Positions 1-9,332 of a stretch of 10,342 nucleotides of DNA are shown here, one piece after another. The stretch comes from a virus (lineage: Duplodnaviria; Heunggongvirae; Uroviricota; Caudoviricetes), in IMG/VR virus record IMGVR_UViG_2663763154_000010; one strand, 5' to 3'. Under the pieces are notes generated by a model. That model had not been told where the DNA came from. It saw only the letters and a list, made by a program, of their open reading frames with translations, and searched no databases. The translations under genes were made by a program, and so were the position numbers. Positions within the stretch are counted from its first letter, which is position 1, and every line of letters begins with the position of its first letter.

Positions 1-516
1 CTGACTCATTTGAGTGGAAAGGATGTTGCCGGTCTTCTCGCATACCTTGGTTTGGGAGAAGGTTCTGCATTACCTGTTGGTGCGCCTGTTCCGTGGCCTT
101 CTGAGACACCTCCAACAGGCTGGATGAAATGCAACGGTGCGGTTTTTTCTGCTGAAGAATACCCGGAACTGGCAAAGGCTTATCCGACAAATAAATTGCC
201 TGATTTACGAGGTGAATTTATTCGTGGCTGGGATGACGGGCGTGATGTTGATAGTGGACGCGCTTTATTAAGCGAACAACTTGACGCTATGCAAAATGTT
301 ACGGGTTCTCTGATTGATAACACTATGGGGTCAGCTTCCTCAGCATCTGGAGTTTTTAATGTTGGTTCTAGTTCTGGGGTTAAATATGCCGCTCCATCAA
401 CTGGTAATGCATTTAGTTACTATGGTGTGACACTTGATTTATCCAGGAGTGCAAGAACATCAGCAGAAACAAGGCCACGTAACATTGCATTTAACTACAT
501 TGTAAGGGCAGCATGA
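1..516 (+). CDS. H: Tail fibre protein, C-terminal part (5' end lies upstream of the window); the variable receptor-binding domain in the currently expressed orientation
   Basis: Frame 1 is open from the window edge to TGA at 514-516. The translation ends ...TRPRNIAFNYIVRAA, a C-terminal signature recalled from Mu S / P1 S / P2 H-type fibres. The stop overlaps the start of the downstream assembly gene (ATGATG). Confidence 0.85.
   Translation: MTHLSGKDVAGLLAYLGLGEGSALPVGAPVPWPSETPPTGWMKCNGAVFSAEEYPELAKAYPTNKLPDLRGEFIRGWDDGRDVDSGRALLSEQLDAMQNVTGSLIDNTMGSASSASGVFNVGSSSGVKYAAPSTGNAFSYYGVTLDLSRSARTSAETRPRNIAFNYIVRAA
35..60. repeat. Left crossover site of the invertible segment (gix/hix/pix-like 26-bp site)
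   Basis: TTCTCGCATACC-TT-GGTTTGGGAGAA: two imperfect 12-bp half-sites fitting the TTCTCnnAAACC pattern around a central TT dinucleotide. Its distal 14 bp (47-60) are the exact inverted repeat of 1868-1881. Confidence 0.7.
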
Positions 517-1124
517 TGACCACAAAAAAAATCACTTTGGATGAAAACGGATTTGCCACAGAGGCTGGCTTCATTACCGTTTACAACTACAACGGAGAAA
601 CGCGGGAATATATTTCCATATCAACTGAATATCTTGCGGTTGGCGTCGGTATCCCGGCATGTTCTTGTTTAGATGCACCAGTTACACATAAGGCTGGTTA
701 TGCAATCTGCCGTTCTGCAGATTTTAACTCATGGGAATATGTGCCAGACCATCGCGGTGAAATCGTCTTTAGCACCGAAACAGGAGAATCAAAAGAAATC
801 ACAGCTCCGGGTGATTACCCTGATAATACAACCACTATCGCCCCGTTAACACCATACGATAAATGGGATGGTGAGAAATGGGTGACGGATACCGATGCAC
901 AGCATAGCGCCGCAGTAGATGCAGCAGAAGCACAACGCCAGTCGCTGATTGATACTGCAATGGCTTCCATCAGTCTGATTCAACTGAAATTGCAGGCCGG
1001 GCGGAAGCTGACGCAGCCAGAAAACACCCGACTTAACGCTGTGCTGGATTACATTGACGCGGTGACGGCAACAGATACCAGCACCGCGCCGGATGTCATC
1101 TGGCCTGAACTGCCGGAGGCGTAG
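513..1124 (+). CDS. Tail fibre assembly protein (chaperone for the + orientation fibre)
   Basis: 203-aa ORF translationally coupled to the fibre gene (ATGA overlap), with AAGGG 5 nt upstream. The C-terminal region ...DTAMASISLIQLKLQAGRKLTQPENTRLNAVLDYIDAVTATDTSTAPDVIWPELPEA resembles the Tfa/gpG/Mu U family C-terminus. Confidence 0.85.
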   Translation: MMTTKKITLDENGFATEAGFITVYNYNGETREYISISTEYLAVGVGIPACSCLDAPVTHKAGYAICRSADFNSWEYVPDHRGEIVFSTETGESKEITAPGDYPDNTTTIAPLTPYDKWDGEKWVTDTDAQHSAAVDAAEAQRQSLIDTAMASISLIQLKLQAGRKLTQPENTRLNAVLDYIDAVTATDTSTAPDVIWPELPEA

Positions 1125-1515
1125 GCCATTCAATATCGAGTGCTGTTAAAGTATTAATACGCATCAATAGCACGCGATATTTTTTCCATGCCAGTAACAG
1201 TTTCGTTTCATCATCTGTTGCCATACCTAAATCAACCGCATCCTGAAGCGGCGCTATTACATTCGTTGCCTCTGCTATCAGTGCAGATTTCTTTTCATCA
1301 TTTATTAAGGCTAATTGTTCTGGTGTTGGAGAAGGACGGTCAACAATGACAGGGTGACCGTTCTCACCACAGGTAATCATTTTTGTTACACTCTGTGAGT
1401 TAATCAGTGTTTTCCACTCTGATTCCGAGATTTCCACTGCATCATCAGGAATATTGGTGCCGTGAAATTCAGTCGAATAAAATCCGTTTGTCGATGCAGA
1501 ATAAAAATATGACAT
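1096..1515 (-). CDS. Alternative tail fibre assembly protein (for the inverted orientation)
   Basis: The - strand ORF ends ...MATDDETKLLLAWKKYRVLLMRINTLTALDIEWPTPPAVQAR, matching the Tfa family C-terminus. The start is placed at the Met of MSYFYSASTNGFY (ATG at 1513-1515), 4 nt after the stop of the upstream silent fibre cassette. In-frame starts at 1548, 1563 and 1611 are possible, so the 5' end is uncertain. Confidence 0.7.
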   Translation of the reverse strand: MSYFYSASTNGFYSTEFHGTNIPDDAVEISESEWKTLINSQSVTKMITCGENGHPVIVDRPSPTPEQLALINDEKKSALIAEATNVIAPLQDAVDLGMATDDETKLLLAWKKYRVLLMRINTLTALDIEWPTPPAVQAR

Positions 1516-1519
1516 TTCG

Positions 1520-1881
1520 TTAATATCCCATTGCAATGTAATACGCATCAGCAGATGAACCATATCCTGAACCGGGCGACACTGTAATATTAAATCCAGT
1601 GTTATGGACATTTGTCGCCGATACAGTCGGCTGCCCTGACGCGCCAGTAACGTTCAATGTAACTGTGACAGCAAGGACTCTTGAGAATGTCATCGGGAAC
1701 CTCATCCCGTATGTTGAAGATACATTCGGGGAGCCATTCAACTGACCGCACTGTAAAATTAATCCAGACGGAAATTTTTGCGCAGCAGCCGTTGCGGTAT
1801 TACTTGACGCGAACAGGCTCATATCAGGTATCTGATTCGCCCCTGTACCTACATTCCTTTTAGCCGCTTCTCCCAAACCAA
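1520..1881 (-). CDS. Silent alternative tail fibre C-terminal cassette (expressed only after inversion fuses it to the constant N-terminal part of the fibre gene)
   Basis: The - strand frame is open from the right crossover site to TAA at 1520-1522. It encodes GLGEAAKRNVGTGANQIPDMS...YYIAMGY. The GLGE codons at the crossover are identical to those at the left site, and the core dinucleotide occupies codon positions 2-3 in both, so inversion gives an in-frame fusion. Confidence 0.75.
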
Positions 1882-1893
1882 CGTTTATGAAAA
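1868..1893. repeat. Right crossover site of the invertible segment
   Basis: TTCTCCCAAACC-AA-CGTTTATGAAAA; the first 14 bp are the exact reverse complement of 47-60. The central AA is the complement of the left-site TT, as expected for sites in inverted orientation. Confidence 0.7.
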
Positions 1894-1948
1894 TGCAGAG
1901 ATAACGGGCAACTGGCATCATCTCCGGTTTTTATTCAGGGGGATGCTC

Positions 1949-2542
1949 ATGCTTATTGGCTATGTACGCGTGTCAACAAATGACCAGAACACGGAATTGC
2001 AGCGTAATGCGCTGGAGTGTGCAGGATGTGAGCTGATTTTTGAGGATAAAATCAGCGGCACGAAGTCTGACCGACCGGGACTGAAAAAACTGCTCAGAAC
2101 ATTATCAGCAGGTGACACTCTGGTAGTCTGGAAGCTGGACAGGCTGGGGCGTAGTATGCGGCATCTGGTCATTCTGGTTGAGGAACTGCGCGAACGCGGC
2201 GTTAATTTTCGCAGCCTGACAGATGCTATTGATACCAGCACGCCGATGGGGCGTTTTTTCTTTCATGTGATGGGTGCCCTGGCAGAAATGGAGCGAGAAC
2301 TCATTGTCGAGCGGACACGCGCCGGACTGGAAGCAGCCAGAGCCAAAGGTCGTATTGGTGGCAGACGACCGAAACTCACCACGAGTGAGTGGGAGCAGGT
2401 CGGACGGTTGCTGGCTGCGGGGGAATCTCGTCAACGTGTGGCGCTGATTTTTGATATTGGCCTGTCCACGCTCTATAAAAAATTCCCCTCATCAGCGACA
2501 AAGAATAAATTGTGTCATCCCTTAGCCAACCGGGACAAATAG
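1949..2542 (+). CDS. Site-specific DNA invertase, serine recombinase (Gin/Hin/Pin/Cin family)
   Basis: The translation from the third Met, MLIGYVRVSTNDQNTELQRNAL...GRRPKLT...STLYKKFP, has the resolvase/invertase N-terminal catalytic domain with the active-site Ser in the YVRVS motif and a C-terminal helix-turn-helix. AGGGGG lies 7 nt upstream of the ATG at 1949. The ORF track start at 1943 is too close to that RBS. Confidence 0.93.
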   Translation: MLIGYVRVSTNDQNTELQRNALECAGCELIFEDKISGTKSDRPGLKKLLRTLSAGDTLVVWKLDRLGRSMRHLVILVEELRERGVNFRSLTDAIDTSTPMGRFFFHVMGALAEMERELIVERTRAGLEAARAKGRIGGRRPKLTTSEWEQVGRLLAAGESRQRVALIFDIGLSTLYKKFPSSATKNKLCHPLANRDK

Positions 2543-2601
2543 CCTGACATCTCCGGCACAACTGAAAATACCACTCACCTATTAACCACGGAGTTAAACG
2601 G

Positions 2602-3792
2602 ATGAGTGACTATCATCACGGCGTGCAGGTGCTGGAGATTAACGACGGCACCCGCGTCATTTCCACCGTATCCACCGCCATTGTCGGCATGGTCTGCACA
2701 GCCAGCGATGCGGATGCGGAAACCTTCCCCCTCAATAAACCGGTGCTGATTACCAATGTGCAGAGCGCAATTGCAAAGGCCGGTAAAAAAGGCACGCTGG
2801 CGGCATCGTTGCAGGCCATCGCCGACCAGTCAAAACCGGTCACCGTTGTCGTGCGTGTGGAAGATGGCACCGGTGACGACGAGGAAACGAAACTCGCGCA
2901 GACCGTTTCCAATATCATCGGCACCACCGACGAAAACGGTCAGTACACCGGACTGAAAGCCCTGCTGGCGGCGGAATCGGTAACCGGTGTTAAACCGCGT
3001 ATTCTCGGCGTGCCGGGACTGGACACCAAAGAGGTGGCTGTTGCACTGGCATCAGTCTGTCAGAAGCTGCGCGCTTTCGGGTATATCAGCGCATGGGGCT
3101 GTAAAACCATTTCCGAGGTGAAAGCCTACCGCCAGAATTTCAGCCAGCGTGAGCTGATGGTCATCTGGCCGGATTTCCTCGCATGGGATACGGTCAGCAG
3201 CACCACCGCCACCGCGTATGCCACCGCCCGTGCGCTGGGGCTGCGCGCTAAAATCGACCAGGAGCAGGGCTGGCATAAAACGCTGTCCAATGTCGGGGTA
3301 AACGGTGTTACCGGCATCAGTGCCTCTGTATTCTGGGATTTGCAGGAGTCCGGCACCGATGCTGACCTGTTGAACGAGTCAGGTGTCACAACGCTGATTC
3401 GCCGTGACGGTTTCCGCTTCTGGGGTAACCGTACCTGCTCGGATGACCCGCTGTTCCTTTTTGAAAACTATACCCGCACCGCGCAGGTGCTGGCCGACAC
3501 GATGGCTGAGGCGCACATGTGGGCGGTGGACAAGCCCATCACTGTAACGCTGATTCGCGACATCGTTGACGGCATCAATGCCAAATTCCGTGAGCTGAAA
3601 ACAAACGGCTATATCGTGGATGCGACCTGCTGGTTCAGCGAAGAATCCAACGATGCGGAAACCCTCAAGGCCGGAAAACTGTATATCGACTACGACTATA
3701 CACCGGTGCCTCCTCTTGAAAACCTGACCCTGCGCCAGCGTATTACCGATAAATACCTGGCAAATCTGGTCACCTCGGTTAACAGCAATTAA
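2602..3792 (+). CDS. FI: Contractile tail sheath protein
   Basis: 396 aa, the same length as P2 gpFI. The N-terminus MSDYHHGVQVLEINDGTRVISTVSTAIVGMV is recalled from P2-family sheath proteins. GGAG RBS; position upstream of FII-E-T-U-D. Confidence 0.95.
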   Translation: MSDYHHGVQVLEINDGTRVISTVSTAIVGMVCTASDADAETFPLNKPVLITNVQSAIAKAGKKGTLAASLQAIADQSKPVTVVVRVEDGTGDDEETKLAQTVSNIIGTTDENGQYTGLKALLAAESVTGVKPRILGVPGLDTKEVAVALASVCQKLRAFGYISAWGCKTISEVKAYRQNFSQRELMVIWPDFLAWDTVSSTTATAYATARALGLRAKIDQEQGWHKTLSNVGVNGVTGISASVFWDLQESGTDADLLNESGVTTLIRRDGFRFWGNRTCSDDPLFLFENYTRTAQVLADTMAEAHMWAVDKPITVTLIRDIVDGINAKFRELKTNGYIVDATCWFSEESNDAETLKAGKLYIDYDYTPVPPLENLTLRQRITDKYLANLVTSVNSN

Positions 3793-3804
3793 GGAGCCTG
3801 ACCG

Positions 3805-4323
3805 ATGGCAATGCCGCGCAAACTCAAGTTAATGAACGTCTTTCTGAACGGCTACAGCTATCAGGGCGTCGCGAAGTCCGTCACGCTACCAAAACTGACC
3901 CGTAAGCTCGAAAACTATCGCGGTGCGGGGATGAACGGCAGCGCACCGGTAGACCTCGGCCTTGATGACGATGCGCTGTCAATGGAGTGGTCGCTCGGTG
4001 GCTTCCCGGATTCGGTTATCTGGGAGCTTTACGCCGCAACCGGTGTGGATGCCGTGCCGATTCGTTTTGCAGGCTCTTACCAGCGCGACGATACCGGCGA
4101 AACGGTGGCCGTCGAAGTGGTCATGCGTGGACGTCAGAAAGAAATCGACACCGGTGAGGGTAAACAGGGTGAAGACACCGAGTCGAAAATCTCCGTAGTC
4201 TGCACCTATTTCCGGCTGACGATGGACGGTAAGGAGCTGGTCGAAATCGACACCATCAACATGATTGAGAAGGTGAACGGCGTCGACCGGCTGGAGCAAC
4301 ACCGCCGCAATATCGGCCTGTAA
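3805..4323 (+). CDS. FII: Tail tube protein
   Basis: 172 aa with AAGGAG RBS, immediately after FI. The N-terminus MAMPRKLKLMNVFLNGYSYQGVAKSVTLPKL matches P2 gpFII. Confidence 0.95.
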   Translation: MAMPRKLKLMNVFLNGYSYQGVAKSVTLPKLTRKLENYRGAGMNGSAPVDLGLDDDALSMEWSLGGFPDSVIWELYAATGVDAVPIRFAGSYQRDDTGETVAVEVVMRGRQKEIDTGEGKQGEDTESKISVVCTYFRLTMDGKELVEIDTINMIEKVNGVDRLEQHRRNIGL

Positions 4324-4379
4324 TTTTCATCCGGTCAGCCAGGCTGACCGGTTAACCCTGATTCAGAAGTGAGAAAACC

Positions 4380-4655
4380 ATGAACAAAGAAAATGTGATT
4401 ACCCTGGACAATCCGGTCAAGCGTGGTGAGCAGGTCATCGAACAGGTCACGCTGATGAAACCCAATGCCGGGACGCTGCGCGGTGTCAGTCTGGCAGCGG
4501 TCGCGAACTCCGAAGTCGATGCACTGATTAAGGTGCTGCCGCGCATGACGGCACCGATGCTGACCGAGCAGGAAGTCGCCGCGCTGGAACTGCCTGACCT
4601 TGTGGCGCTGGCCGGTAAGGTGGTCGGTTTTTTGTCGCCGAACTCGGTGCAGTGA
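4380..4655 (+). CDS. E: Tail assembly chaperone E (zero-frame product)
   Basis: 91-aa ORF between the tube and tape-measure genes. It contains the slippery heptamer TTTTTTG at 4628-4634, 7 codons before its stop. Confidence 0.9.
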   Translation: MNKENVITLDNPVKRGEQVIEQVTLMKPNAGTLRGVSLAAVANSEVDALIKVLPRMTAPMLTEQEVAALELPDLVALAGKVVGFLSPNSVQ

Positions 4656-4807
4656 CGTTTCCGAAAAATCTGTCGGTCGATGACCTGATGGCGGATGTGG
4701 CAGTGATATTTCACTGGCCGCCATCAGAACTGTATCCCATGAGCCTGACCGAACTCATCACATGGCGCGAAAAGGCGCTCCGGCGAAGCGGAAACACGAA
4801 TGAGTAA
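4380..4807 (+). CDS. E+E': Tail assembly chaperone E+E' (programmed -1 translational frameshift product; slip at 4628-4634)
   Basis: The -1 frame downstream of T6G is open to TAA at 4805-4807 and encodes VAELGAVTFPKNLSVDDLMADVAVIFHWPPSELYPMSLTELITWREKALRRSGNTNE. The predicted fusion is 142 aa, and the E' end overlaps the start of T, as recalled for P2. Confidence 0.8.
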
Positions 4808-7247
4808 CAATGTAAAATTACAGGTATTACTCAGGGCAGTTGACCAGGCATCCCGCCCGTTTAAATCCATCCGTGCAGCGAGCAAATCGCTGTCGGGGGA
4901 TATCCGGGAAACACAAAAATCACTGCGCGAGCTGAACGGTCAGGCATCCCGTATTGAGGGATTTCGCAAGACCAGTGCACAGCTCGCCGTGACTGGTCAT
5001 GCACTTGAAAAGGCTCGGCAGGAAGCCGAAGCCCTTGCCACACAGTTTAAAAACACCGAACGTCCGACCCGTGCTCAGGCGAAAGTGCTGGAATCCGCAA
5101 AGCGTGCGGCGGAGGACTTACAGGCGAAATATAACCGCCTGACGGATTCCGTTAAACGCCAGCAGCGGGAACTGGCCGTTGTGGGAATTAATACCCGCAA
5201 TCTTGCACGTGATGAGCAGGGACTGAAAAACCGTATCAGTGAAACCACCGCACAGCTTAACCGTCAGCGTGATGCGCTGGCGCGTGTCAGTGCGCAACAG
5301 GCAAAACTTAACGCAGTAAAACAGCGTTATCAGGCAGGCAAGGAACTGGCCGGAAATATGGCCTCGGTGGGCGCTGCCGGTGTGGGGATTGCGGCGGCGG
5401 GAACGATGGCCGGAGTTAAGCTGCTGATGCCCGGTTATGAGTTTGCGCAGAAAAACTCAGAATTGCAGGCCGTGCTCGGAGTGGAAAAAGACTCCGCCGA
5501 AATGACCGCACTACGCAAACAGGCGCGCCAGCTCGGCGACAATACCGCCGCCTCGGCGGATGATGCGGCCGGTGCACAGATAATCATCGCGAAAGCGGGT
5601 GGGGATGTTGATGCCATTCAGGCGGCAACGCCGGTCACGCTGAATATGGCGCTGGCGAACCGCCGCACGATGGAAGAAAACGCCGCCCTGCTGATGGGGA
5701 TGAAATCCGCCTTTCAGCTTTCAAACGATAAGGTCGCTCATATCGGGGATGTTCTCTCCATGACGATGAACAAAACCGCCGCCGATTTTGACGGCATGAG
5801 CGATGCGCTGACCTATGCCGCACCTGTGGCAAAAAATGCCGGTGTCAGCATTGAAGAAACCGCCGCAATGGTCGGGGCGCTGCATGATGCAAAAATCACA
5901 GGCTCAATGGCGGGGACGGGAAGCCGTGCCGTGTTAAGCCGCCTGCAGGCACCGACGGGAAAAGCATGGGATGCACTCAAAGAGCTTGGAGTGAAAACCT
6001 CAGACAGCAAGGGAAACACCCGGCCAATATTTACCATTCTGAAAGAAATGCAGGCCAGTTTTGAGAAAAACCGGCTCGGTACTGCCCAGCAGGCTGAATA
6101 CATGAAAACTATTTTCGGGGAGGAGGCCAGCTCAGCCGCCGCCGTGCTGATGACTGCCGCCTCAACCGGAAAGCTGGACAAACTGACCGCTGCGTTTAAA
6201 GCCTCAGACGGGAAGACCGCAGAGCTGGTAAATATCATGCAGGACAACCTCGGCGGTGACTTTAAGGAGTTTCAGTCCGCTTATGAGGCGGTGGGGACTG
6301 ACCTGTTTGACCAGCAGGAAGGCGCACTGCGTAAGCTCACACAGACGGCCACAAAGTATGTGTTAAAACTCGACGGCTGGATACAGAAAAACAAATCACT
6401 GGCGTCAACCATTGGCCTCATTGCCGGTGGCGCGCTGGCGCTTACTGGCATCATCGGTGCCATTGGTCTTGTAGCCTGGCCGGTTATCACCGGTATCAAT
6501 GCCATCATCGCGGCAGCAGGCGCAATGGGGGCAATCTTCACGACGGTTGGCAGTGCCGTTATGACGGCCATCGGGGCGATTAGCTGGCCGGTTGTGGCCG
6601 TGGTGGCCGCTATTGTCGCCGGGGCGTTACTTATCCGTAAATACTGGGAGCCTGTCAGCGCATTCTTTGGCGGTGTGGTTGAAGGGCTGAAAGCGGCATT
6701 TGCGCCGGTGGGGGAACTGTTCACGCCACTTAAGCCGCTGTTTGACTGGCTGGGTGAAAAGTTACAGGCCGCGTGGCAGTGGTTTAAAAACCTGATTGCC
6801 CCGGTTAAAGCCACCCAGGACACCCTGAACCGTTGCCGTGACACGGGCGTCATGTTCGGGCAGGCACTGGCTGACGCGCTGATGCTGCCGCTTAATGCGT
6901 TCAACAAACTGCGCAGCGGTATTGACTGGGTACTGGAAAAACTCGGTGTTATCAACAAAGAGTCAGACACACTTGACCAGACCGCCGCAAGGACTCATGC
7001 CGCCACGTATGGCACCGGTGGTTATATTCCGGCGACCAGCTCTTATGCAGGTTATCAGGCTTATCAGCCAGTCACGGCACCGGCTGGCCGCTCTTATGTG
7101 GACCAGAGTAAAAACGAATATCACATCAGCCTGACGGGTGGTACTGCGCCGGGGACACAGCTTGACCGCCAGTTACAGGATGCACTCGAAAAATACGAGC
7201 GGGATAAACGTGCGCGCGCCCGTGCCAGCATGATGCATGACGGTTAA
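4800..7247 (+). CDS. T: Tail tape measure protein
   Basis: 815 aa, the same length as P2 gpT. The N-terminal region is rich in Q/R/A/L/E, consistent with coiled coil. There is a long Gly/Ala/Ile-rich hydrophobic block (about 6400-6660) and a C-terminal domain. It follows the E/E' frameshift pair as in other tail modules. Confidence 0.95.
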   Translation: MSNNVKLQVLLRAVDQASRPFKSIRAASKSLSGDIRETQKSLRELNGQASRIEGFRKTSAQLAVTGHALEKARQEAEALATQFKNTERPTRAQAKVLESAKRAAEDLQAKYNRLTDSVKRQQRELAVVGINTRNLARDEQGLKNRISETTAQLNRQRDALARVSAQQAKLNAVKQRYQAGKELAGNMASVGAAGVGIAAAGTMAGVKLLMPGYEFAQKNSELQAVLGVEKDSAEMTALRKQARQLGDNTAASADDAAGAQIIIAKAGGDVDAIQAATPVTLNMALANRRTMEENAALLMGMKSAFQLSNDKVAHIGDVLSMTMNKTAADFDGMSDALTYAAPVAKNAGVSIEETAAMVGALHDAKITGSMAGTGSRAVLSRLQAPTGKAWDALKELGVKTSDSKGNTRPIFTILKEMQASFEKNRLGTAQQAEYMKTIFGEEASSAAAVLMTAASTGKLDKLTAAFKASDGKTAELVNIMQDNLGGDFKEFQSAYEAVGTDLFDQQEGALRKLTQTATKYVLKLDGWIQKNKSLASTIGLIAGGALALTGIIGAIGLVAWPVITGINAIIAAAGAMGAIFTTVGSAVMTAIGAISWPVVAVVAAIVAGALLIRKYWEPVSAFFGGVVEGLKAAFAPVGELFTPLKPLFDWLGEKLQAAWQWFKNLIAPVKATQDTLNRCRDTGVMFGQALADALMLPLNAFNKLRSGIDWVLEKLGVINKESDTLDQTAARTHAATYGTGGYIPATSSYAGYQAYQPVTAPAGRSYVDQSKNEYHISLTGGTAPGTQLDRQLQDALEKYERDKRARARASMMHDG

Positions 7248-7261
7248 GGAGGTGACGAAAA

Positions 7262-7741
7262 ATGATGCTCGCGTTAGGTATGTTTGTTTTTATGCGCCAG
7301 ACGCTGCCACACCAGACCATGCAGCGTGAATCAGATTATCGCTGGCCGTCAAATTCCCGTATCGGTAAACGGGATGCCTTTCAGTTTCTCGGTGTTGGCG
7401 ATGAAAACATCACGCTTGCCGGTGTGCTTTATCCTGAACTGACCGGCGGAAAGCTGACGATGACCACGCTCAGGCTGATGGCAGAGGAAGGCCGGGCGTG
7501 GCCGTTGCTGGATGGCACCGGCATGATTTACGGCATGTATGTCATCAGCAAGGTGAGTGAAACAGGGAGTATTTTCTTTGCAGACGGCACACCCCGAAAA
7601 ATTGATTTTACGCTGTCGCTCACCCGTGTTGATGAATCACTGGCCGCGCTTTATGGCGATATCGGTAAACAGGCGGAATCGCTCATCGGTAAGGCTGGCA
7701 GTATGGCGGCTAAATTCACGGGTATGACGGGGGCGGAATAA
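7262..7741 (+). CDS. U: Tail protein U
   Basis: 159 aa with AGGAGG RBS. The sequence MMLALGMFVFMRQTLPHQTMQRESDYRWPSNSRIGKRDAFQF matches P2 gpU. Its stop overlaps the D start (TAATG). Confidence 0.95.
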   Translation: MMLALGMFVFMRQTLPHQTMQRESDYRWPSNSRIGKRDAFQFLGVGDENITLAGVLYPELTGGKLTMTTLRLMAEEGRAWPLLDGTGMIYGMYVISKVSETGSIFFADGTPRKIDFTLSLTRVDESLAALYGDIGKQAESLIGKAGSMAAKFTGMTGAE

Positions 7742-8904
7742 TGCTGGATGCGCGGACATTTTATGCAGGCAGTACGCTGACGCCGGATTACATGCTGATG
7801 CTCGACAGCAGGGATATTACCGGCAATATCAGCGACCGTCTGATGAGCATGACCCTGACGGATAACCGGGGCTTTGAGGCTGACCAGCTTGATATTGAAC
7901 TGAACGATGCCGACGGGCAGGTCGGGCTGCCGGTTCGTGGCGCTGTCCTGACGGTGTATATCGGCTGGAAAGGTTTTGCCCTGGTATGCAAAGGGAAATT
8001 TACCGTTGATGAGGTTGAACACCGGGGCGCGCCGGATGTGGTCACCATCCGTGCCCGGAGTGCAGATTTTCGCGGGACGCTCAATTCCCGCCGGGAAGGC
8101 TCATGGCATGACACCACGCTCGGTGCGATTGTTGAGGCGATAGCCTCCCGTAACAGGCTGGAAGCCAGTGTCGCTCCGTCACTGGCAGGAATTAAAATCC
8201 CGCACATCGACCAGTCGCAGGAGTCTGATGCGAAATTCCTGACCCGTCTTGCAGAACGCAACGGCGGTGAGGTCTCGGTAAAAATGGGAAAACTGTTGTT
8301 TCTCAAAGCGGGGCAGGGGGTGACGGCCAGTGGTAAAAAAATCCCGCAGATTACCATCACCCGCAGCGACGGCGACCGTCATCATTTTGCGATTGCTGAC
8401 CGTGGAGCTTACACCGGCGTAACGGCAAAGTGGTTACACACCAAAGACCCGAAGCCGCAAAAGCAGAAGGTAAAACTGAAACGCAAAAAGAAAGAGAAAC
8501 ACCTGCGCGCACTGGAGCACCCGAAAGCGAAACCGGTCACGCAGAAGAAAGCGCCAAAAGTACCGGAAGCGCGCGAAGGTGAATACATGGCCGGTGAGGC
8601 TGACAACGTTTTTGCACTGACCACGGTATATGCCACGAAAGCACAGGCCATGCGCGCCGCTCAGGCGAAGTGGGACAAACTGCAACGGGGTGTGGCGGAG
8701 TTCTCCATCAGCCTGGCTACCGGTCGGGCAGATATTTACACGGAAACACCGGTTAAAGTGTCAGGCTTTAAGCGCGTCATAGACGAGCAGGACTGGACAA
8801 TCACTAAGGTGACACATTTTCTGAATAATAGCGGCTTCACGACGTCCTTAGAGCTTGAGGTCAGGCTTTCTGATGTGGAGTACGAAACAGAAGATGATGA
8901 GTGA
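7741..8904 (+). CDS. D: Tail protein D (late control gene D family)
   Basis: 387 aa, the same length as P2 gpD. Translationally coupled to U. Contains the family's Lys-rich low-complexity linker (KPQKQKVKLKRKKKEKHLRALEHPKAKPVTQKKAPK). Confidence 0.95.
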   Translation: MLDARTFYAGSTLTPDYMLMLDSRDITGNISDRLMSMTLTDNRGFEADQLDIELNDADGQVGLPVRGAVLTVYIGWKGFALVCKGKFTVDEVEHRGAPDVVTIRARSADFRGTLNSRREGSWHDTTLGAIVEAIASRNRLEASVAPSLAGIKIPHIDQSQESDAKFLTRLAERNGGEVSVKMGKLLFLKAGQGVTASGKKIPQITITRSDGDRHHFAIADRGAYTGVTAKWLHTKDPKPQKQKVKLKRKKKEKHLRALEHPKAKPVTQKKAPKVPEAREGEYMAGEADNVFALTTVYATKAQAMRAAQAKWDKLQRGVAEFSISLATGRADIYTETPVKVSGFKRVIDEQDWTITKVTHFLNNSGFTTSLELEVRLSDVEYETEDDE

Positions 8905-8922
8905 TGTGATTTATTTATCTAT

Positions 8923-8951
8923 TTGTTTTGTAAAGATAAATTAACTAAAAT
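8923..8951 (+). promoter_or_regulatory. Putative sigma70-type promoter for ogr
   Basis: TTGTTT (8923-8928), a 17-bp spacer, then TAAAAT (8946-8951), about 35 nt upstream of the ogr ATG. The -35 hexamer is weak, so this is a by-eye call. Confidence 0.3.
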
Positions 8952-8985
8952 GGCAACATCAACAAAACCGGAAGAGGTGCTCGCG

Positions 8986-9204
8986 ATGTTTCATTGTCCT
9001 TTATGCCAGCATGCCGCACATGCGCGTACAAGCCGCTATATCACTGACACGACAAAAGAGCGTTATCACCAGTGTCAGAACGTGAATTGCAGCGCCACGT
9101 TCATCACCTATGAGTCGGTACAGAGATACATCGTGAAGCCGGGAGAAGTCCACGCCGTAAGGCCGCACCCGTTGCCGTCAGGGCAGCAAATTATGTGGAT
9201 GTGA
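8986..9204 (+). CDS. ogr: Ogr, zinc-finger transcriptional activator of late genes
   Basis: 72 aa starting MFHCPLCQHAAHARTSRYITDTTKERYHQCQNVNC, with the C-X2-C-X22-C-X4-C zinc-binding arrangement. GAGG lies 8 nt upstream of ATG 8986. The longer ORF from 8923 is an upstream in-frame extension, and 8923-8951 is better read as the promoter. Confidence 0.9.
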   Translation: MFHCPLCQHAAHARTSRYITDTTKERYHQCQNVNCSATFITYESVQRYIVKPGEVHAVRPHPLPSGQQIMWM

Positions 9205-9212
9205 TCACAAAA

Positions 9213-9240
9213 ATAGCCCCTCAGTTGAGGGGCTTTATTT
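9213..9240 (+). terminator. Rho-independent terminator after ogr
   Basis: Perfect 8-bp GC-rich stem AGCCCCTC (9215-9222) / GAGGGGCT (9227-9234) with a 4-nt loop, followed by TTATTT. Confidence 0.7.
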
Positions 9241-9247
9241 ATGGTCG

Positions 9248-9267
9248 ATGTGGACGCTATGTGGACA
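9248..9267 (+). repeat. Two direct repeats ATGTGGAC spaced 11 bp apart; candidate integrase arm-type binding sites
   Basis: ATGTGGAC at 9248-9255 and 9259-9266 (the second extends to TGTGGACA at 9260-9267), between the ogr terminator and host DNA, where the P' arm of a P2-type att site is expected. Confidence 0.4.
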
Positions 9268-9332
9268 GCGGTTGACATAAATCCATTTATATCATCAGGT
9301 TAGGTGCTTTTTTGTGACACCATCCCTGTCTT

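Follow-up and report, generated by a model that had tools for sequence, protein, structure and literature searches.

The DNA analysed here is a 10,342-nucleotide stretch of a tailed phage genome (Caudoviricetes; IMG/VR record IMGVR_UViG_2663763154_000010), referred to below, at its full length, as the window. By its sequence, it is part of a P2-like prophage of Escherichia coli integrated beside fieF. At its left end lies a group of genes that a previous annotation made from the letters alone (the sequence-only reading) had interpreted as an invertible tail-fibre cassette with its own invertase. We find that this region very probably is a Pin/Gin-type two-site inversion switch in the tail-fibre region of the prophage, in which two alternative fibre tips, each with its own chaperone gene (tfa), lie on opposite strands between two 26-bp crossover sites. 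The features on which this interpretation is built are the following:

1–46, plus strand: end of the constant part of an H-like tail-fibre gene, with the frame open from base 1 and the gene start upstream of the window
35–60, no strand assigned: left crossover site, TTCTCGCATACC TT GGTTTGGGAGAA, central dinucleotide at 47–48
47–516, plus strand: tip A, the variable fibre tip that at present continues the constant part (Phage Tail Collar PF07484, E = 1.1e-15; HK97/HK106 stf type)
513–1124, plus strand: tfa (chaperone) for tip A (Pfam Caudo_TAP, E = 1.5e-32)
1096–1515, minus strand: second tfa, for tip B (Pfam Caudo_TAP, E = 6.7e-30)
1520–1881, minus strand: tip B, the silent alternative fibre tip (Gp53-like_C PF21882, E = 4.7e-14)
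1868–1893, no strand assigned: right crossover site, TTCTCCCAAACC AA CGTTTATGAAAA, central dinucleotide at 1880–1881
1949–2542, plus strand: serine DNA invertase of the Pin/Gin type, 197 amino acids (Pfam Resolvase E = 2.7e-52, HTH_7 E = 4.7e-13)
1971–2033, no strand assigned: putative recombinational enhancer inside the invertase gene, at its 5′ end (two Fis-core-like 15-mers and synonymous conservation)

The arrangement is that of a constant fibre N-terminus lying outside the segment and two C-termini, each with its own tfa, on opposite strands and both joining the constant part in frame. The constant part of the fibre gene contributes only 34–46 nt to the window (the stretch 1–46 is 100% and 91% identical to the matching parts of the fibre genes of E. 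coli LD27-1 and of isolate GF75, respectively, two relatives discussed below), and the open reading frame (ORF) that ends with tip A is open from 1 to 516. Tips A and B are unrelated to each other, and a comparison of the two tfa products found no significant similarity. The 3′ ends of the convergent tfa genes overlap over 29 nt (1096–1124), an arrangement also seen in tfaP and tfaE of the e14 element of E. coli K-12. The overlap leaves no space for a terminator between them, so that late transcription of the active pair must continue in antisense into the silent genes. In a consensus scan of 1–2700, all terminator-like matches fell within coding sequence, and promoter-like matches were fewer than in shuffled sequences. 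ORFs and Pfam domains bear out the earlier assignment of a tip and tfa to the plus strand and of a second tfa and a second tip to the minus strand. The minus-strand tip had also been called ‘promoterless’; it is not strictly without a start codon, because its ORF, which stops at 1520, extends beyond the right site as far as an ATG at 1921 that is not in the segment.

When bases 47–1881 are inverted in silico at the central TT, both sites are rebuilt and tip B is joined in frame to the constant part. The flipped fusion reads ...LGLGE up to the junction and AAKRNVGTGANQIPD... after it (in longer context, ...LSGKDVAGLLAYLGLGE and AAKRNVGTGANQIPDMSLF...), stops after 133 codons, and is followed 4 nt on by the second tfa.

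In a repeat search, the longest inverted repeat of 1–3200 was 35–61/1867–1893, which contains both proposed sites. Set in inverted orientation, 35–60 and 1868–1893 match at 21 of 26 positions, and their inner half-sites are identical: the right site, read as its reverse complement, is TTTTCATAAACG TT GGTTTGGGAGAA. Each site is an imperfect dyad in which two 12-bp half-sites flank a central TT (10/12 and 8/12 positions agree between the half-sites), and the 2-bp core is the same in both when they are read in the same sense. On its own, this repeat is at chance level, since an inverted 26-mer match of at least 21/26 arose in 5 of 40 dinucleotide-type shuffles of 1–3200. The repeat by itself was left unused as evidence because it is not significant in the shuffles. 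The sites are nevertheless real, on four independent grounds. (i) The right site is identical at 26/26 positions to the pix site beside pinE in e14. (ii) In Shigella, Kluyvera, Dryocola, Rosenbergiella, Pantoea, and Pectobacterium, invertase genes are preceded at ~70 bp by a site with the centre AAACC-NN-GGTTT. (iii) Both sites share one reading frame of the two fibre ORFs. (iv) The end points of natural inversions fall in these sites, as do those of cassette homology in the left one. Along the same lines, the Mu gix site matches both window sites in form.

The shuffles invite the reading that the repeat arose by chance, or that the fibre genes exchange by ordinary homologous recombination, the convergent pairs being static. 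The identity of the right site to that of e14 and the inversions of relatives, which end inside the 26 bp, each refute this reading, and an invertase gene lies only 55 bp away; we give it next to no credence. Moreover, 26 bp with five mismatches is too short for RecA-dependent exchange, which counts against homologous recombination. The two 26-bp inverted sites of the sequence-only reading are, in sum, borne out by the repeat search, the identity to e14, and the inversion end points in relatives.

The locus could also be a multiple-inversion system with more than two fibre variants, comparable to Min/p15B or to a three-site locus of enteropathogenic E. coli (EPEC), and three-site P2-like loci with four variants have been described (PMC4272514). 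A scan of the window for AAACC-NN-GGTTT with up to two mismatches found no credible third site. It returned eight matches, i.e., the two known sites at one mismatch and six others at two mismatches, all six outside the cassette; eight matches are within chance, as the shuffle mean was 4.4 and 20 of 200 shuffles reached eight. A locus with more than two sites was rejected on the same grounds together with its gene content, which comprises only two tips and two tfa genes, and we consider this alternative highly improbable.

As stated before, the serine invertase gene is just outside the right site, at a distance of 55 bp, and its Resolvase and HTH_7 domains confirm its identity. The ORF is full length and retains the catalytic Ser9. 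Its start at 1949 (MLIGYVRVS) agrees with the family; an ATG at 1943 would add two residues found in no relative. Residues 1–182 align with the Gin structures 3UJ3 (E = 1e-93) and 4M6F (E = 2.7e-92), and the resemblance to serine invertases expected of the 1949–2542 product is close: identity is 86% to PinE and, for Gin, 76% by global alignment and 79% by tblastn. His106 and Met114 are wild type, so that the protein is not of the Fis-independent mutant type known for Gin. Residues K46, K47, R50, Q150, R153, and L154 stand at the positions aligned to Hin K47, R48, K51, Q151, R154, and L155, which are residue types conserved only in invertases dependent on Fis and an enhancer (McLean et al., PMC3798978). 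Judged by these comparisons, the invertase belongs to the Gin/Pin/Hin subfamily.

These systems reportedly have a Fis-bound enhancer inside the 5′-terminal part of the invertase gene (work attributed to Kahmann in 1985 and to Johnson and Simon in 1985), with its Fis sites said to lie ~48 bp apart (Johnson and colleagues, 1987). The window has two Fis-core-like 15-mers at the corresponding place, 1971–1985 (TGTCAACAAATGACC) and 2019–2033 (GTGCAGGATGTGAGC), whose centres (1978 and 2026) are separated by 48 bp; gin agrees with the second in 14 of its 15 positions. Under a G-N13-C rule, the spacing is 49 bp in one register and 48 bp in the register with Y-R steps at ±3–4, a motif feature taken from PMC4784862, and our preference for the 48-bp register is an inference only.

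Synonymous positions offer a second line of evidence. For 33 distinct phage-type invertase genes drawn from many Enterobacterales, pairs of sequences that share an amino acid also share its codon in a fraction of 0.58 over codons 7–30 vs. 0.39 elsewhere; the raised stretch spans codons 7–33, within roughly the first 35 codons of the gene. The eight top 24-codon windows all begin at codons 4–11, and codons 9–12 (TCA ACA AAT GAC) are almost invariant at synonymous positions; the enhancer region of the window agrees with this family consensus. A second group of relatives served solely as a control. It comprises ~50 loci that encode a 185-amino-acid recombinase (MLIGYARVSTQDQNLELQREAL...) ~64% identical to the window invertase. 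This protein is nearly unchanged across very distant Proteobacteria and one actinomycete metagenome-assembled genome, which suggests a widely spread transposon- or plasmid-borne recombinase. In 34 such transposon-type relatives away from fibre cassettes, no 5′ synonymous peak was found, the 5′ end ranking 115 of 157. The comparison supports a DNA-level constraint at the 5′ end of the phage-type gene, as expected for a Fis enhancer.

Inversion itself can be read from the genomes of relatives. Queries in the native and in the flipped orientation each match many genomes in their own orientation. E. coli LD27-1 has the same segment (98.5% identity over 44–1884) the opposite way round; its P2-like flanks are those of the window, and its fibre gene continues into tip B. 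A related prophage occupies one and the same chromosomal position in GF75 and GF8, which were isolated from chicken meat in a single study, and the two loci (5,603 bp) are identical save for an exact reverse complement of the 1,824 bp between the sites. The exchange can be placed inside the 26-bp site because the inner half-sites differ by one base. The invertase of GF75 and GF8 is 97.5% identical to that of the window, and it evidently flipped its segment between these sister isolates. For e14 and for two P2-like prophages of EPEC E2348/69, sequencing and polymerase chain reaction (PCR) likewise showed coexisting orientations (PMC4272514). By these comparisons, both orientations occur in nature, as shown for relatives. 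Draft contigs of Citrobacter, Kluyvera, and Photorhabdus end within the site ~75–85 bp upstream of the invertase start; such contig breaks look like mixed orientations in the sequenced culture, as would be expected.

The relatives also raise the possibility that the switch is frozen here, i.e., that the architecture was inherited while the segment no longer inverts, either with the invertase unexpressed or with the prophage a decaying remnant. Locked copies do exist: the LD27-1 invertase (at 2826–2933 of its locus) has an internal loss of ~400 bp (equivalent to 2044–2442 of the window), so that its segment is locked in the flipped state. Likewise, tips of the same kinds occur singly and fixed in SfI/SfIV and HK97, and the consensus scan found no sigma-70-like promoter at 1894–1948, between the right site and the invertase start. 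However, the window invertase ORF is full length with all signature residues, both crossover sites are intact, the enhancer region fits the family consensus, and the nearly identical GF75/GF8 enzyme evidently flipped its segment. We therefore regard a frozen switch as improbable, and the comparisons indicate that the system is probably intact and active in this genome.

The inversion switch would work in three steps, pictured here after the family. (i) Invertase dimers would bind the two 26-bp sites. (ii) The bound sites would come together at an enhancer occupied by Fis, inside the initial ~100 bp of the invertase gene. (iii) Cutting at the central TT/AA and strand exchange would turn over bases 47–1881. 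In the present orientation, the constant part is read into tip A (Collar, HK97-like) and then into its chaperone; after a flip, it is read in frame into tip B (gp53-like) and then into the other chaperone. Because these genes are transcribed only from an upstream promoter in the late operon, each cell and its particles would carry one fibre type, and a lysogen culture would yield mixed particles with two receptor specificities. Inversion by this family requires negative supercoiling as well as host Fis. We infer the Fis dependence of inversion here, and likewise the two host ranges, which are suggested by the unrelated tips and by what is known of Mu and P1.

Besides the chance-level repeat, several points weigh against this interpretation. 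Fis sites are not reliably callable from sequence, and the first 15-mer has T, not G, at position −7. The receptor specificities of tips A and B are presumed by analogy, and activity in this very genome is deduced from flips observed in the assemblies of relatives. The completeness of the prophage and the production of particles are not readable from the window.

Outside the cassette, the window is that of a P2 relative. Two further features define this setting:

2505–2533, plus strand: counterpart of the activator (Ogr) binding site of the P2 promoter pF, by alignment to P2 17555–17583
2602–9204, plus strand: P2 tail operon FI, FII, E/E′, T, U, D, then ogr (P2 identity; Pfam sheath, tube, tape measure, GPD, and Ogr_Delta)

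Positions 2522–9294 have 94–97% DNA identity to P2. They span pF, the genes from FI through ogr, and the Int/IHF arm as far as the attP core. At least 80% of the window is present in 334 of 5,426 complete E. coli genomes, none of which reaches 99% identity over most of 1–2600. The P2 record (NC_001895) lacks an invertase and a second tip; it has H, G, a terminator, and fun(Z) on the minus strand, then pF and FI. The sequence-only reading had stated that P2 has fun(Z) between G and FI and no switch, which the record confirms, and it had called the cassette a module replacement in a P2-like tail, which is correct because the record has H, G, fun(Z), and pF and no invertase; P2 homology resumes only at ~2510. 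The replacement extends to the left of the cassette, as the constant part of the GF75 fibre is only 42–44% identical to P2 H.

The right edge of the replaced module (~2510) falls within the pF activator-binding site, so that the last ~12 invertase codons are promoter DNA. The invertase ORF ends in this P2 pF promoter DNA, and for that reason its C-terminus is 13 residues longer than that of PinE. The invertase stop codon (2540–2542) lies 34 nt before the pF start, which maps to 2576–2578 (P2 17626–17628). The same invertase/pF junction is found in GF75/GF8, and there is no terminator between the invertase gene and the late tail operon.

At the far end of the tail operon, the ogr ORF as listed runs from a TTG start over 8923–9204 (93 amino acids); its real start is probably the ATG at 8986 (MFHCPLCQH...), which is preferred because P2 ogr has 72 amino acids. 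P2 homology ends at 9294, just short of the expected P2 attP core. Homology to K-12 starts at 9316, 150 bp upstream of fieF and within cpxQ, the sRNA that forms the 3′ end of the cpxP transcript, and runs through fieF. From these two limits, it follows that the attachment core is unlike that of P2. Unless the opposite prophage end restores the connection, integration at this place cuts cpxP off from the 3′ portion of cpxQ.

Among the closest known systems is e14 P/PinE, with its identical right site, a site-to-invertase distance of 53 bp (55 bp in the window), and convergent stf-tip/tfa pairs with overlapping tfa ends. It differs in that e14 is a lambdoid remnant, whereas the window is a P2-like myovirus tail module, and in that tip B and its tfa are unlike StfP/TfaP of e14; the extended invertase C-terminus is a further difference. 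Mu G/Gin shares the order Sc, site, Sv-U/U′-Sv′, site, invertase, but the Mu segment is ~3 kb, its core is GA instead of TT, its fibre tips are unrelated, and Mu is another type of phage. In the EPEC E2348/69 P2-like prophages, the invertase also lies between the fibre genes and FI of a P2-like tail module, whereas the tips differ and one of these loci has three sites and four variants vs. two sites in the window (PMC4272514). The T22 ‘P2’ record KC618326 has a DNA invertase and two tfa genes annotated at the same place (91% identity over 60% of the query), but its fibre tips differ.

The window invertase is ~64% identical to Salmonella Hin. Hin/hix belongs to the same recombinase subfamily, has 26-bp sites of the same form with an AA/TT core, and carries its enhancer where the putative one of the window lies, within the 5′ part of the recombinase gene (PMC3798978). 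Unlike the window system, which swaps coding C-termini with the invertase outside, Hin flips a promoter and its gene lies inside the segment. Classical P2 shares FI to ogr and the pF promoter, at the identity given above, but has a single H tip, G, and fun(Z), lacks an invertase and a second tip, and has a different attachment region. The earlier comparison with Mu G, P1 C, and e14 P thus stands, in that every element testable in silico is present.

The cassette is a mosaic. Tip A and its chaperone have 95% DNA identity to stf-tfa of HK97/HK106 and 89% to stfE-tfaE of e14; for tip B and its chaperone, the identity to SfI/SfIV is 96–98%. Shigella phage SfIV matches 610–1886 of the window in one piece, which covers tip B, its tfa, and most of the opposite tfa, and no invertase is annotated under this match; it looks like the fossil of an invertible segment in a phage. 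E. coli Br_178_kylling carries two related copies. One, a 99.5% copy of 47–1886, lies in a dusA-integrated non-P2 prophage (5001–6846 of its locus) that has e14/Mu-type baseplate genes and an invertase of its own, with homology to the window over 36–2046, i.e., through the enhancer. The second prophage is P2-like and has the whole module (8–2487) at 94.5%, with a sheath gene only 67% identical. Both prophages encode the same tfa proteins (WP_032160441.1 and WP_078165802.1), and the two segments are 96.7% identical to each other.

In several comparisons, homology begins within the left site (36–47) and ends in the right site or just past the enhancer (2046). Such end points could mean that the unit of left site, two tip/chaperone pairs, right site, and enhancer is a portable cassette, swapped between unrelated prophages by recombination at the crossover sites and not merely inherited, a proposal that we put forward tentatively and think rather unlikely to be right. 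The exchange of fibre tips among unrelated phages is said to have been long known (Haggard-Ljungquist in 1992, Sandmeier in 1994).

The mechanism, the family, and the occurrence of such switches in P2-like prophages are all established, and the systems are common in E. coli; that this is a known class of system had been said before and agrees with the experimental demonstration of inversion in P2-like prophages (PMC4272514). The finding has little significance beyond correct annotation and opens no new question. For annotation, it cautions that the second tfa and the minus-strand tip should not be labelled ‘partial’ or pseudogenes, the way RefSeq labels them in close relatives. It also bears on the prediction of prophage host range and on assembly quality, as drafts often break at crossover sites. 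For the biology of the strain, it means that its P2-like prophage is probably able to release particles of two kinds that differ in their fibre tips.

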